From: a virus | Lineage: Duplodnaviria > Caudoviricetes | IMG/VR virus record: IMGVR_UViG_3300031760_000049 | Location: 4,010 to 68,009 of that record | Length of the DNA: 64,000 bases | Strand: one strand, 5' to 3' | Part shown: piece after piece, positions 59,183 through 64,000 of the stretch | How positions within the stretch are numbered: the stretch's first letter is position 1 | Layout of the letters: each line of letters begins with the position of its first letter | Program-made: the position numbers and the translations under genes | The notes under the pieces: generated by a model | Told to the model about the DNA's origin: nothing | Database searches by the model: none | The model's input: only the letters and a program-made list of their open reading frames with translations

Positions 59183-59211
59183 AGAAGGTCTCCTTTCATA
59201 TTCTTGTCTTA

Positions 59212-59282
59212 ATTATATCAAAAATTTTGCAGTTGGTCAAATTTTGCTAAGGGTTGAATTTTCAAAAATTTTTTGATATAAT
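59212..59282. promoter_or_regulatory. Divergent pair of sigma-A promoters (minus 59212-59240; plus 59254-59282)
   Basis: TTGACC-17-TATAAT and TTGAAT-17-TATAAT, both with extended TG, at the strand switch. Confidence 0.75.
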
Positions 59283-59435
59283 TATTATAGAATAGATAAA
59301 AAGGAAAATAAAGAATAAATTAAAAAAATAATAAATATTATTAGTTTTAATTATTTTGATAATAATTATAAATATATAGAACTCCGCCAATAGAAAAAGA
59401 TAAGGCGGCAATTAAATAATTAGGGAGGATAAATA

Positions 59436-59789
59436 ATGTATCAATTAAAGCCCGCAAAGGAATTATATGAAATAACAATGGATTATAGTGCGGAAGAATT
59501 TTGGGAAACGCTGATGTCACAATTTGAAGAAGTAGCAGCCGCACACCAACAATTTGCTTATGTTAGACTATTGGCTAATGTATGTATAGATATGAATGTA
59601 GAAGCTACACTTGAAAAGGCGGGGTATGATGTTGAATTTATTGAGTATGACCCCGATGAAGATATGTATACTTTACAGGTCTTTTGGGATAGTGTGGCGG
59701 TGACTGGGCAGGGTGTCCGCAGTCAATTAAAGAGAAAAATAACAAAGGATGATTGGGATGAAGATGAAGATGATGATGAGTATTGTTGA
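59436..59789 (+). CDS. Small highly acidic protein
   Basis: 117 aa with RBS GGAGG; ends DDWDEDEDDDEYC. Confidence 0.75.
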   Translation: MYQLKPAKELYEITMDYSAEEFWETLMSQFEEVAAAHQQFAYVRLLANVCIDMNVEATLEKAGYDVEFIEYDPDEDMYTLQVFWDSVAVTGQGVRSQLKRKITKDDWDEDEDDDEYC

Positions 59790-59853
59790 TAGGCGGTTTT
59801 GATAAAAATATATAATATTTATATTAAATTATTATGTTGGGAGAAAATAAAAA

Positions 59854-60090
59854 ATGAATGATTGTAAAACAGCGTATGTCGATATAGGCGTATGGATGGT
59901 AATTTTTCTTTTGGGTTTTGTGAAAAAATATATTGAGAATATTATCCTAAATTTAATAAGATATTATAAAATAATAAAAACTATTGAGATTGATAAAGGG
60001 TGGTTGGTGGCTTTTGATAATGAAATAAATGCTGTTAATTTTAATATTAATGTAAAGACTACTATTGAAATACAAGGGGTGGGCGGATAG
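59854..60090 (+). CDS. Possible small hypothetical protein
   Basis: GGGAG upstream of ATG, but the sequence is very AT-rich and compositionally biased. Confidence 0.3.
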   Translation: MNDCKTAYVDIGVWMVIFLLGFVKKYIENIILNLIRYYKIIKTIEIDKGWLVAFDNEINAVNFNINVKTTIEIQGVGG

Positions 60091-60322
60091 TAGAATATAA
60101 TAAAGTATAAAAAGAAAAAATATATGTAATAATTGTTGAATATTTTTACTTTTGAAATAAATTTGGAGATAAAAATAATATCGTCTTTCTATTTCAAAAT
60201 AAATTTGGAGACAGAGAGTGCGTGGCAAAGAGTATTTAACAAATCAAAAAAAATTTTTTCCCATAACTACCCCCCCATTATTGCTAGGCGCGTTCACTGC
60301 CATTGTGCGCCGAACCCACGAT

Positions 60323-60494
60323 AGAACATGCGTTCGGCTATTCTGCGTTCGAACAGGTGTTCAGCTATGTGTTCCATCTATTCCTAAATGTTTCACGTGA
60401 AACATTGAACACATATTCATTCGAACATACGTTTGTTATCTCACTAAAAACATAAGTACAAGATGTGGGGTATGAAATAACGAACGCACGTTTG
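60323..60494. promoter_or_regulatory. Cluster of five LexA/DinR (SOS) boxes
   Basis: GAAC-N4-GTTY at 60323, 60350, 60422 and 60481, plus a one-mismatch box at 60406. Confidence 0.75.
60389..60404. promoter_or_regulatory. parS: parS centromere-like site (ParB/Spo0J binding)
   Basis: TGTTTCACGTGAAACA is an exact match to the Bacillus-type consensus, extended to a 20-bp palindrome (60387-60406). Confidence 0.85.
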
Positions 60495-60508
60495 TTATTT
60501 CATACCCC
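60467..60508. repeat. Inverted repeat with 15-bp arms centred on an SOS box
   Basis: GGGGTATGAAATAAC-GAACGCACGTTT-GTTATTTCATACCCC. Confidence 0.85.
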
Positions 60509-60633
60509 CATTAAAATTTTTCTAAAAATCTCAAATTTTTCATAAAAAAGTGTTGACAATTCTTTATTATGATGTTATAATGTTTACATAAGGTAAAGAA
60601 AACAAAACATACTAATAAAGAGAGGTAAACATT

Positions 60634-60747
60634 ATGAAAAATATGATTATTAAATTAGGCACAACAGTAATTGCACAAAAAACATTATCACTAGAAGAAA
60701 TCCGTGAATATCAGAACGCTGGTTTTGTATGTATACCGAGTAAATAA
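60634..60747 (+). CDS. 37-aa microprotein (not in ORF track)
   Basis: Promoter 60553, RBS AGAGAGGT, MKNMIIKLGTTVIAQKTLSLEEIREYQNAGFVCIPSK. Confidence 0.65.
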   Translation: MKNMIIKLGTTVIAQKTLSLEEIREYQNAGFVCIPSK

Positions 60748-60802
60748 AAACTAAACATACTGTGTCATAATAATACAATCAAGAGATAGAAAGGCGGTGC
60801 TT

Positions 60803-60964
60803 ATGAACAAAATAATATCTACATCTTATAAAATTTTAACAAAAGAAGAAGTTATGAAAAGATTAAATAACCATAGTATACAATGTATACGAGAATCTAA
60901 AACAAATAATATAAGCATTATCATTTATGGTAATTATATTGTAAAATTTATCAATAATACTTGA
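60803..60964 (+). CDS. 53-aa microprotein (not in ORF track)
   Basis: RBS AAGGCGGTG, MNKIISTSYKILTKEEVMKRL...; the stop overlaps the next -35 hexamer. Confidence 0.5.
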   Translation: MNKIISTSYKILTKEEVMKRLNNHSIQCIRESKTNNISIIIYGNYIVKFINNT

Positions 60965-61019
60965 CAAATAATTATAATTGTATTACAATATAAATAATAA
61001 AAAGAAAGGATAAGAAACT

Positions 61020-61828: not shown

Positions 61829-62008
61829 ATGAAAACAGTATTGATTAAGTATGAAACAATCTCTCCTGTAGTATTGGCAAACAAGATAGAGCATGTTTTT
61901 GCTTGTATGACTATATACAGAGAGGTTGACGAAGACACCTTTGAGTTAAGCGTGTTTGATTGCACAGACCTTGCAATGCTTGAGAACTTATTAGCTGAGT
62001 ATGTATAA
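61829..62008 (+). CDS. 59-aa acidic microprotein
   Basis: Promoter 61769 and RBS AGAGAGGT give a start at 61829 rather than 61685. Confidence 0.7.
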   Translation: MKTVLIKYETISPVVLANKIEHVFACMTIYREVDEDTFELSVFDCTDLAMLENLLAEYV

Positions 62009-62031
62009 TACTCAGTTAATAATACCCTGGG

Positions 62032-62061
62032 CGGTGCGCGGTCGTAGCGCACCGCTTTTAT
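62032..62061 (+). terminator. Intrinsic terminator
   Basis: GCGGTGCGC-GGTCGTA-GCGCACCGC-TTTTATT. Confidence 0.75.
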
Positions 62062-62429
62062 TATATCATAGACTTAGACGAATTGTCAAGAGGAAAATGA
62101 AAAAAAGTTGCACAAATTTTCTATCCTAAAACCGCGAAAATTTGTGCAACTTTTTTTTCATTTTGGGGTTGACTTTTGGGCGGGGGCATGGTATACTATG
62201 TATAGAAGTTAAGCAAAGGATAACAAATGAGATTGAAAACAATTTGAAAAAACTTCAAAAAAAAGTGTTGACAAACTTCACATTTAGTGCTATAATAAAT
62301 ATAGAAGTTAAGCAAAGGATAACAAATGAGATTGAGAACAATTTGAAAAAACTTCAAAAAAAGTGTTGACAAACACAAACAAACATGATATAATAAATAT
62401 AGAAATTAAGAAAAGAGAGGTAAAAAATT

Positions 62430-62876
62430 ATGATGAACACTTATGAAATTACAATGGTAACAAAGGCAACTGCACACGACTACTTCAATGGTGCTTACAA
62501 TTACGAGAGCGATGTTGTAAGAGTCAAAGCTGATAACAAAGACCAGGCAAAAGAAATTGCCACAAAAGAAAATGCTGATTTTGTAGTAGTTAGAGTCGAA
62601 GATGTAAAAGAGATTGAGGCAAGAGAAAAAGCAGTTGCAAATGCTATCGCAAAAGACAAAGAGAGAAAAGCAAAAGCACAGGCAACTAGAAAAGCCAACG
62701 AAGAAAAAAAGGCTTGCGAAATGGGTATGACGATAGAAGAATATAGAAAATATAAAGCAATCATGAGTCGTAAGACAAAAGCAGAAAATGAAATTGCAAA
62801 AATGCAACAACAGATTTACTACGCACAGAAAAAAATTGCTGAGTATGAAAAAGAAATTGCAAACATGACAAAATAA
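62430..62876 (+). CDS. Hypothetical early protein (small alpha/beta domain plus basic coiled coil), copy 1
   Basis: Promoter 62366, RBS AGAGAGGT, 148 aa. Confidence 0.8.
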   Translation: MMNTYEITMVTKATAHDYFNGAYNYESDVVRVKADNKDQAKEIATKENADFVVVRVEDVKEIEAREKAVANAIAKDKERKAKAQATRKANEEKKACEMGMTIEEYRKYKAIMSRKTKAENEIAKMQQQIYYAQKKIAEYEKEIANMTK

Positions 62877-62883
62877 AAATAAA

Positions 62884-62913
62884 CGAACGCTTGTTCCCAC
62901 GAACGAGCGTTCG
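62884..62913. promoter_or_regulatory. Tandem pair of LexA/DinR boxes (copy 1)
   Basis: CGAACGCTTGTTCC and CGAACGAGCGTTCG, 2 nt apart. Confidence 0.75.
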
Positions 62914-63183
62914 GCTCCGAAAAATTATACCACATAGCACTCTGGTTTGTCAAGAGAAAAATGAAAAAAAGTTGCACAAAAAACTATTTCCTCAAACTGT
63001 AATTTTTGTGCAATTTTTTTGTTGACAAAATATAGTTTGTATGATATACTATGTATAGAAGTTAAGCAAAGGATAACAAATGAGATTGAGAACAATTTGA
63101 AAAAACTTCAAAAAAAGTGTTGACAAACACAAACAAACATGATATAATAAATATAGAAATTAAGAAAAGAGAGGTAAAAAATT

Positions 63184-63630
63184 ATGATGAACACTTATGA
63201 AATTACAATGGTAACAAAGGCAACTGCACACGACTACTTCAATGGTGCTTACAATTACGAGAGCGATGTTGTAAGAGTCAAAGCTGATAACAAAGACCAG
63301 GCAAAAGAAATTGCCACAAAAGAAAATGCTGATTTTGTAGTAGTTAGAGTCGAAGATGTAAAAGAGATTGAGGCAAGAGAAAAAGCAGTTGCAAATGCTA
63401 TCGCAAAAGACAAAGAGAGAAAAGCAAAAGCACAGGCAACTAGAAAAGCCAACGAAGAAAAAAAGGCTTGCGAAATGGGTATGACGATAGAAGAATATAG
63501 AAAATATAAAGCAATCATGAGTCGTAAGACAAAAGCAGAAAATGAAATTGCAAAAATGCAACAACAGATTTACTACGCACAGAAAAAAATTGCTGAGTAT
63601 GAAAAAGAAATTGCAAACATGACAAAATAA
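63184..63630 (+). CDS. Hypothetical early protein, copy 2 (identical)
   Basis: Exact duplicate of 62430-62876. Confidence 0.8.
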   Translation: MMNTYEITMVTKATAHDYFNGAYNYESDVVRVKADNKDQAKEIATKENADFVVVRVEDVKEIEAREKAVANAIAKDKERKAKAQATRKANEEKKACEMGMTIEEYRKYKAIMSRKTKAENEIAKMQQQIYYAQKKIAEYEKEIANMTK

Positions 63631-63637
63631 AAATAAA

Positions 63638-63667
63638 CGAACGCTTGTTCCCACGAACGAGCGTTCG
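63638..63667. promoter_or_regulatory. Tandem pair of LexA/DinR boxes (copy 2)
   Basis: Same sequence as 62884-62913. Confidence 0.75.
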
Positions 63668-63936
63668 GCTCCGAAAAATTATACCACATAGCACTCTGGT
63701 TTGTCAAGAGAAAAATGAAAAAAAGTTGCACAAAAAACTATTTCCTCAAACTGTAATTTTTGTGCAATTTTTTTGTTGACAAAATATAGTTTGTATGATA
63801 TACTATGTATAGAAGTTAAGCAAAGGATAACAAATGAGATTGAGAACAATTTGAAAAAACTTCAAAAAAAGTGTTGACAAACACAAACAAACATGATATA
63901 ATAAATACATAATAAAGAAAAGAGAGGTACAAAAAT

Positions 63937-64000
63937 ATGAGAGAATTAAAAGAAATTATTGCAGAGATTAAGGAAGTAGAGAAAAGAGTGATATACTTAA
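63937..64000 (+). CDS. Start of next cassette gene (3'-truncated)
   Basis: Promoter 63874, RBS AGAGAGGT, MRELKEIIAEIKEVEKRVIYL... Confidence 0.6.
   Translation, partial: MRELKEIIAEIKEVEKRVIYL

Follow-up and report, generated by a model that had tools for sequence, protein, structure and literature searches.

LexA control of temperate phages is textbook knowledge, with examples ranging from CI-like repressors that cleave themselves and Tum-type antirepressors to the phage GIL01 and the oop RNA of lambda. The PeSL cassettes of T4 and the host-takeover module of SPO1 are a further familiar arrangement, in which tiny early genes stand behind strong host-type promoters and conserved promoter and stem-loop modules flank variable open reading frames (ORFs). 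In lambda, as recounted in PMC5869508 with reference to Lewis et al. 1994, a promoter with a LexA site converges on the 3' end of a phage gene and makes an antisense RNA against cII. In the tectivirus GIL01, host LexA serves as the repressor together with gp7 and the LexA homologue gp6, acting through boxes within the lytic promoters P1 and P3 (PMC4551915, PMC6182141). The lytic Bacillota phage phi29 has five parS (Spo0J/ParB) sites as well as 0A boxes at promoters, and is entrapped in spores (PMC2731898). Here we analyse a window of 64,000 nt, bases 4010-68009 of the 68,009-bp linear IMG/VR record IMGVR_UViG_3300031760_000049 (Caudoviricetes), and within it the final 4.8 kb, where candidate LexA operators lie among strong host-type promoters, microgenes and a parS site. 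An earlier note on this DNA, made from the sequence alone, had taken it for a control region built from host-protein binding sites, through which a repressor-less phage might leave segregation or dormancy to ParB and its lysis/persistence decision to LexA.

What is new here and, on the sequence evidence, solid is the presence of conserved and selected operators, apparently for host LexA, in the early region of an abundant, apparently virulent family of gut siphoviruses, including a portable antisense-promoter module. The window contains eight matches to CGAACN4GTTCG at one mismatch or fewer, compared with 0.29 expected, and none of 100 shuffles reached eight. All of them (starts at 60323, 60350, 60422, 60481, 62884, 62900, 63638 and 63654) fall within 3.4 kb, between 60323 and 63667, and two are copies made by a duplication, which leaves six independent boxes. 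Nine SOS boxes had been counted in the earlier note; eight stand at this threshold, and there are two candidates for the ninth, a site at 60311 with two mismatches and a box at 60407 that has decayed here but is intact in relatives.

The same boxes mark the early side of related phages. An IMG/VR search with the 410-aa protein of the first leftward gene returned 52 related loci (49-79% identity, many on contigs of 130-169 kb; individual loci carry L numbers below), in which the early side of the 410-aa gene, 294 kb in total, holds 41 copies of the exact core GAACN4GTTC and the structural side, 472 kb, holds five. All five represent a single site shared by near-identical contigs, and the structural-side rate equals the chance rate at 30% GC. 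In a 100%-complete relative of 163.6 kb, the genome's four perfect boxes are all in the early region. The 48 distinct exact-core boxes found across relatives also share a detail that was never part of the search motif: the first spacer position is a purine and the fourth a pyrimidine in 94 of 96 readings, and the spacer conforms to RNRY in 43 of the 48 boxes versus about 23% by chance. We take such boxes to be of the Bacillus subtilis type, with the LexA consensus CGAAC-RNRY-GTTYC (CGAACRNRYGTTYC). The Firmicutes LexA motif is conserved phylum-wide (PMC3998124).

Signs of selection come from array 1, a cluster of four boxes of which 13 distinct versions were recovered from pig and other gut assemblies. 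Pairwise diversity in the half-sites is 0.024-0.046 compared with 0.101 in the other non-coding columns (permutation p 0.0006), and the 4-nt spacers are hypervariable (0.256), which is the pattern that a dimeric protein reading only the half-sites would leave. RNAalifold on 11 array 1 versions gave a covariation term of -0.11 with pairs at the palindromes only and thus no support for a structured RNA. Because four independent lines agree, namely distribution, unsearched motif detail, selection and the geometry described below, the boxes are functional-looking operators that are selected and conserved in the early region of the family, and the host LexA sites of the earlier note can be accepted as a real feature.

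Geometry supplies the fourth line. Behind the 148-aa gene, a gap of exactly 10 nt separates the -10 of a perfect antisense promoter from the proximal operator downstream of it, which thus covers about +4 to +17. This layout recurs in L060-L064 and L069-L074, that is, in every close relative with the 148-aa gene in this context, and again in a distinct lineage (L012, L015, L017 and L019), where it lies behind unrelated genes and the 78-84% identity covers the module alone. All ten distinct versions of the module have kept an intact proximal operator, while the distal box is in decay. Such promoter-occluding placement was seen at the antisense promoters at 62953 and 63707 and at their counterparts in relatives; the four boxes of array 1 lie outside promoters. 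No LexA box overlaps any of the seven sense promoters that match TTGACA/TATAAT at all 12 positions (12/12), the divergent pair at 59.2 kb or the promoter that drives the 410-aa gene.

Between the end of array 1 and the -35 of the first strong early promoter lie 59 nt, a distance kept in relatives, and the array itself contains no sigma-A-like promoter scoring at least 9/12. Its haplotypes differ in box number through gain or loss of whole boxes. A second, paralogous array (array 2) is situated just past the end of the window, as seen in L060 (5190-5530) and also in L070, L071 and L072. Array 2 opens with the same GC hairpin and holds two to four boxes in 39-bp units, each unit combining a box with a TGTCCCA-N4-TGGGACA palindrome. 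Beyond the array come a TTGTGCAATATGCACAA palindrome, a promoter of the form TTGCAT-16-TGTTATAAT and some 95 GC-rich nucleotides devoid of ORFs, all upstream of an NT5C-like gene.

Promoters are dense throughout the region (Table 1). Eleven 12/12 sigma-A promoters lie in less than 4 kb, seven in sense and four in antisense orientation, and the antisense ones (61526, 62089, 62953 and 63707) all have an 18-nt spacer and a TG-extended -10. At the left edge, GC skew passes from -0.22 to +0.36/+0.59 at about 59.0-59.3 kb, coincident with the coding-strand switch, and since the coding strand changes there such an inversion is expected. The divergent pair at this switch lies inside a 19-nt inverted repeat (59210-59228/59266-59284). 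The symmetric hairpin ahead of the tandem sense promoters is a predicted bidirectional terminator that would insulate the cassettes from each other, and weaker copies of it recur after each cassette. The features listed in the earlier note are therefore largely in place: divergent promoters and a skew inversion at the strand switch, perfect promoters on both strands, an inverted repeat in the form of the hairpins at 62100-62157, 62964-63020 and 63718-63774, and a perfect parS.

Table 1. Features of the region and of its left flank, in window coordinates.
Feature	Position	Strand	Details
Putative LexA-gated antisense promoter module	62884..62953	-	-35/-10 at 62953..62924; proximal operator 62900-62913; distal box 62884-62897
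Duplicate antisense module	63638-63707	-	
LexA array 1	60287..60508	.	GC hairpin 60287-60311; long hairpin 60467-60508 with the last box at its tip
Array 1 boxes	60323-60336, 60350-60363, 60422-60435, 60481-60494		Decayed box 60407-60420
parS TGTTTCACGTGAAACA	60389-60404	.	Perfect match to the 16-bp chromosomal consensus TGTTNCACGTGAAACA; between LexA boxes of array 1
Divergent sigma-A promoters	59210..59284	- and +	Minus 59240..59212 (TTGACC-17-TATAAT, TG); plus 59254..59282 (TTGAAT-17-TATAAT)
Antisense 12/12 promoter without LexA box	61497..61526	-	Reads into hairpin 61441-61457
Antisense 12/12 promoter without LexA box	62060..62089	-	Convergent on the 59-aa gene
Three tandem sense promoters in 99-bp repeats	62169..62394	+	At 62169, 62268 and 62366, ahead of the 148-aa gene
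Symmetric hairpin with A-run and T-run	62100..62157	both	Free energy (dG) about -28/-29 on each strand, z about -6.8
Two small genes, 117 aa and 78 aa	59436..60090	+	117-aa product conserved only in L002/L003
15-nt direct repeats AAATAAATTTGGAGA, then A8-T6-CCC..C7 tract	60147..60276	+	Repeats at 60155 and 60197
Early microgene cassettes	60553..62008	+	Consensus promoters at 60553, 60961, 61586 and 61769, each with a Shine-Dalgarno sequence (SD)
Cassette genes	60634-60747, 60803-60964, 61020-61394	+	37 aa; 53 aa; 124 aa (membrane)
Further cassette genes	61648-61737, 61829-62008	+	29 aa; 59 aa
148-aa gene	62430..62876	+	Identical second copy 63184-63630
Next promoter and start of a further microgene	63874..64000	+	ATG at 63937; runs off the contig end
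First leftward gene, 410 aa	57950..59182	-	PHROG 5767 'sigma factor', E 2e-48; label unconfirmed (sigma or terS-like helix-turn-helix)
Packaging/structural arm, left of the region		-	410-aa protein, HNH endonuclease, split large terminase, portal, 3,287-aa ORF of tape-measure size

Taken together, this is on balance probably the early region, of the host-takeover type and driven by host RNA polymerase, of an apparently strictly virulent large siphovirus that infects a Bacillota host in the animal gut, with LexA gating antisense promoters. In each portable cassette, a small and fast-evolving gene would stand behind a consensus sigma-A promoter, its leader and an SD, in many cases with a convergent consensus promoter at the gene's 3' end, and the bidirectional hairpin would insulate the unit from its neighbour. 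Because the boxes avoid the sense promoters and sit after antisense ones, intact LexA would permit rather than block early expression: with LexA on its putative high-affinity operator, the antisense promoter behind the 148-aa gene would be shut and the gene expressed. Once LexA is cleaved, by host SOS or an SOS response triggered by the infection, or is out-titrated by replicating phage DNA, the antisense promoter would come on, and its transcription would collide with the sense message and pair against it, lowering expression of the gene. The module would thus amount to an SOS- or time-dependent shut-off of chosen early genes, with the hairpins confining each sense/antisense pair to its own cassette, and arrays 1 and 2 might provide additional LexA-binding capacity, as a sink, or act as a roadblock. 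What the sequences demonstrate is the sites themselves, with their geometry, conservation and pattern of selection; LexA binding, the direction of regulation and an effect of ParB, if any, are what we infer from them. If it is right, a LexA site is used here in an unusual way, to gate the antisense promoters of insulated microgene cassettes, and virulent gut phages would be tuning their early programme to the DNA-damage state of the host, which bears on the interplay of antibiotics and phages in the gut. It would also offer a compact, portable, LexA-switched convergent-promoter module.

Several observations weigh against this reading. The array boxes, four of the six independent ones, overlap no recognisable sigma-A promoter, so that most boxes are unexplained by an operator model. 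Two of the four antisense promoters are without a LexA box, which means that antisense transcription is not generally LexA-dependent. Many relatives with a 10 kb early region (for example, L046, L018 and L021) carry no box at all and the LexA input must therefore be dispensable. The exact duplication that includes the second antisense module lies at the contig end and may be an assembly artefact. Finally, the only pointers to the host are bins of metagenome-assembled genomes (MAGs) labelled Eubacteriales, Erysipelotrichaceae or Bacilli, so that a canonical host LexA and ParB are an assumption.

The lifestyle of the phage was judged from its gene content. The contig, about 46% of the genome, contains no integrase, resolvase, HTH_3, S24, LexA_DNA_bind or ParB domain. 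Five near-complete relatives (88-100% complete) likewise have no tyrosine or serine integrase, and no HTH_3 or S24 domain above curated cut-offs. From this lack of recombinases, HTH_3 and S24, the family looks virulent, or at least without the usual lysogeny genes, and missing lysogeny genes are not by themselves an argument for dormancy. Neither PF01726 (LexA_DNA_bind) nor PF00717 (S24) reaches its cut-off, if present at all, in the contig or the near-complete relatives, so that these have no gp6-like LexA homologue and host LexA would be the natural ligand of the boxes. The earlier note had remarked that no phage repressor was in view and had proposed to confirm the absence of integrase and repressor genome-wide. 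Its remark is borne out for the contig, which is only half a genome, and the five near-complete relatives have neither a CI/LexA-like repressor nor a conventional CI/integrase module, so that such a switch, which the note had named as a counter-argument to its own proposal, falls away.

The parS within array 1 is the only match at two mismatches or fewer in the 64 kb, where 0.01 are expected. A chance match is to be expected somewhere when many windows are scanned, and it is conservation that decides. No parS at one mismatch or fewer occurs in any of the 52 family loci or of the five genomes that are 88-100% complete. Of 14 close relatives, nine have a perfect site and fall into two haplogroups that differ by about 20% in this region; a tenth has one mismatch, and in the other four TGTTTCGTATGAAACA (three mismatches; L093 is an example) stands in its place, with an adjacent LexA box lost along with it. 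Diversity in the parS columns is 0.087 against a background of 0.101. Given its absence from the wider family and its replacement in four of 14 close relatives, parS is, to judge from these comparisons, an old feature of one sublineage, plainly dispensable and an add-on rather than part of the family design, with selection on it unproven. The contig contains no ParB gene, and Spo0A boxes (TGTCGAA) number zero in 59.2-64 kb and two in the whole window, compared with 4.7 expected. A single parS in array 1 would presumably load host ParB if the host has a canonical system, and a role like that of the phi29 sites is, by analogy, a possibility rather than a finding. Its lineage-specific occurrence does provide a natural presence/absence series on whether host ParB benefits a lytic phage.

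The proposal of the earlier note, that LexA acts as a lysis/persistence switch in a repressor-less phage as in GIL01 and that ParB/parS segregates or entraps a dormant episome as in phi29, draws on real observations: the family is without integrase or CI, a perfect parS has been kept in two haplogroups about 20% apart, and precedents exist for both parts (phi29 parS/Spo0J, PMC2731898; GIL01 LexA, PMC4551915 and PMC6182141). It nevertheless seems improbable to us. The boxes leave uncovered both the sense early promoters and the one that drives the 410-aa gene, the reverse of the situation in GIL01, and a gp6-like LexA homologue is missing. The co-conservation of parS and SOS boxes that the earlier note had suggested checking is not seen, parS being absent from the wider family and the five near-complete genomes and polymorphic in close relatives; one parS stands here against five in phi29, and there are no Spo0A boxes. 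Relatives are encountered only as metagenome contigs and MAG bins, never in isolate genomes, the contig has no ParB gene, and no isolate-borne episome was found. Neither segregation or dormancy via ParB as a family trait nor a lysis/persistence decision via LexA is supported. A different use of the same sites is that arrays and parS are not operators but high-affinity sinks, titrating LexA (and ParB) as phage copies rise, derepressing the host SOS regulon, disturbing chromosome handling and incidentally timing the antisense promoters. That most boxes sit in promoter-less arrays of four to six sites, with two to four more at 39-bp spacing in the second array, would suit such a role, as would selection on the half-sites and whole-box gain and loss among haplotypes. 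We still consider it doubtful: it is pure inference, some ten sites per genome may or may not make a difference to the LexA pool of the cell, many relatives have no boxes, and we know of no precedent. We are just as hesitant about a wider version, in which a strictly virulent phage reads and perhaps manipulates both LexA and ParB, the decay or titration of LexA during infection serving as a clock for the change from sense to antisense transcription and the arrays and parS as copy-number-dependent sinks that derepress SOS and capture ParB/SMC.

Two further explanations would take host LexA out of the picture. The block at 60140-60520 could chiefly be a packaging (cos/pac) or replication element whose palindromes serve a phage protein, their likeness to LexA and ParB sites being incidental. 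Its direct repeats, A/T tract and C-run are kept at this position family-wide, HNH and split large terminase genes lie immediately to the left, and the whole block is well conserved rather than the boxes alone. The direct repeats are, however, separate from the boxes, the same boxes recur far away at the antisense promoters and in array 2, the RNRY signature matches LexA, and the spacers vary where the half-sites do not, so that we give this explanation little credence. Still less likely, in our view, is a phage-encoded dimeric regulator that copies LexA specificity. With 46% of the genome in hand and many small early proteins unannotated, such a protein could have escaped notice, yet the near-complete relatives have no S24 or LexA_DNA_bind domain, and motif and spacer preference are those of the host-type consensus. 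The LexA-gated early region described above is the reading we retain.

The direct repeats deserve attention in their own right, as the arrangement of repeats, A/T tract and C-run holds its position in distant relatives (three times in L002, and in L027, L043 and L060) and may, next to the HNH-terminase module, serve packaging or bind some other protein. The 60155/60197 repeat was rejected as a general phage promoter, since the window has no other copies and TCCCATAA is not enriched. Elsewhere in the region, the promoter at 61526..61497 (minus strand) leads directly into the hairpin at 61441-61457 and then a T-rich run (window 61430-61526), and may produce a small RNA of about 60 nt. Palindromes of the TTGTGCA/TGCACAA type occur near LexA boxes and terminator hairpins across the family (window 62100-62157, L047, L029, L027 and L060:5343-5400) and may be the site of some further regulator.

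The small early proteins had no Pfam or PHROG match, and across the family loci only the 117-aa protein has a clear homologue, in two loci. In the early region the DNA of relatives aligns only along the hairpins, the operator/antisense-promoter module and the promoter-leader-SD modules, and not along the ORFs. As the modules are conserved and the ORFs are not, recombinational shuffling of the cassettes, as the earlier note had it, fits, whereas the duplication that it regarded as amplification may be a product of assembly. This duplication is an exact tandem one, 62300-63153 being identical to 63054-63907 (an 854-bp exact repeat; unit of 754 bp, 2.13 copies, 62300..63907 on the plus strand). 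The duplication stops 93 bp short of the contig end. Its junction falls within the 99-bp promoter-leader repeat, and may have arisen as unequal crossing-over between modules would have it or as an assembler can produce it.

The 148-aa gene is single-copy in other contigs (L060 and L093). In gut assemblies its protein falls into 56 clusters (87-99% identity), nearly all from contigs 0.6-1.2 kb long, which fits a repeat-rich region that breaks assemblies, and a search of IMG/VR with it gave no match. In some gut contigs, L055 (4684-5130) and L056, the gene has different neighbours, among them a Thg1-like gene, and lacks the LexA/antisense module, so that the two travel independently. The predicted structure (predicted local distance difference test, pLDDT, 84.8) combines a small alpha/beta N-domain with a long helical hairpin, a generic fold. 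The N-domain matches a common small fold, with eL20, PaaB and T7 Gp2 tied (Z 6.1-6.7); the T7 Gp2 match was therefore not accepted as pointing to an RNA-polymerase inhibitor and may serve as a lead only. Minus-strand ORFs of 164 aa over the 148-aa gene were likewise rejected as genes, having no SD, in contrast to the gene on the plus strand, which has a strong one and numerous homologues.

The end of the window is the end of the contig, which represents about 46% (CheckV completeness) of a phage of about 150 kb from a very large gut family. Small plus-strand genes start right of the strand switch, and helicase- and primase-type genes are found at the contig start. Gut assemblies yielded more than 5,500 homologues of the 410-aa protein at E<1e-100. 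The nearest cultured or named relatives are distant, first phAss-1 (portal 38% identity) and then large Enterococcus and Bacillus siphoviruses; the predicted host of phAss-1 is a member of the Clostridia (PMC10607447). A scan of GTDB genomes gave eight matches, all of them MAG-binned contigs (Eubacteriales, Erysipelotrichaceae, Bacilli and one Gastranaerophilaceae), which include no isolate genome carrying the family and point neither to a firm host nor to an episome. Among 50,697 phage records, Megablast found no match to the region, and an Rfam scan of the region returned sub-threshold noise only. Pattern scans for further members of the sublineage gave no or unrelated matches in IMG/VR and one relevant contig in JGI metagenomes (L083, the same as L088).

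The 410-aa protein had no Pfam match, including none to a Pfam sigma domain, and Foldseek with its AlphaFold2 model (pLDDT 66.8) found no match; weak VIA matches were to helix-turn-helix folds, namely sigma-H region 4 (Z 6.6) and that of terS, the small terminase (Z 7.2). Its C-terminus forms a Cys-rich, zinc-ribbon-like tail. The large terminase is encoded in two ORFs (284 aa and 340 aa, window 53907-56008, minus strand) that match different parts of the terL profile, a split consistent with an intron noted earlier from the sequence alone. In relatives, the 410-aa gene has in-frame TAG (L027:10001-11089, L041 and L045) or in-frame TGA codons (L033, L109 and L050), and two of these stops fall at columns that are Trp in the window, so that stop-codon recoding is present inside the family, possibly of more than one kind. 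Read in table 11, the window itself is clean. Relatives of phAss-1 read TAG as Gln (PMC10607447).

Compared with the systems named at the outset, the region shares with the T4 PeSL cassettes and the SPO1 module the plan of promoter and stem-loop modules that flank non-conserved ORFs, the repeats offering homology for duplication and shuffling. It departs from them in that many cassettes add a convergent consensus promoter and some also a host LexA operator, a combination that, to our knowledge, is undescribed for T4 PeSL or SPO1. With phi29 it has in common a host Spo0J/ParB site in a lytic Bacillota phage, reduced here to one parS in one sublineage and unaccompanied by 0A boxes. GIL01 is likewise a Bacillota phage without a CI of its own and with host LexA boxes of the same consensus. 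LexA silences GIL01, whereas in the present region the sense promoters are free of boxes, a gp6-like domain was not found and nothing speaks for lysogeny. The closest mechanistic precedent, as far as PMC5869508 describes it, is lambda oop, which has in common with the module at 62953 a convergent LexA-site promoter at the 3' end of a protein gene. Lambda is temperate and, by the same account, the target of oop is the lysogeny regulator cII, whereas the family described here looks virulent and the putative targets are unrelated small early genes. For an antisense transcript from the module, the next minus-strand terminator is the hairpin at 62100-62157, about 760 nt away. The module also differs from oop in being portable and repeated, in having a box of the Gram-positive type and in placing its operator downstream of the -10.

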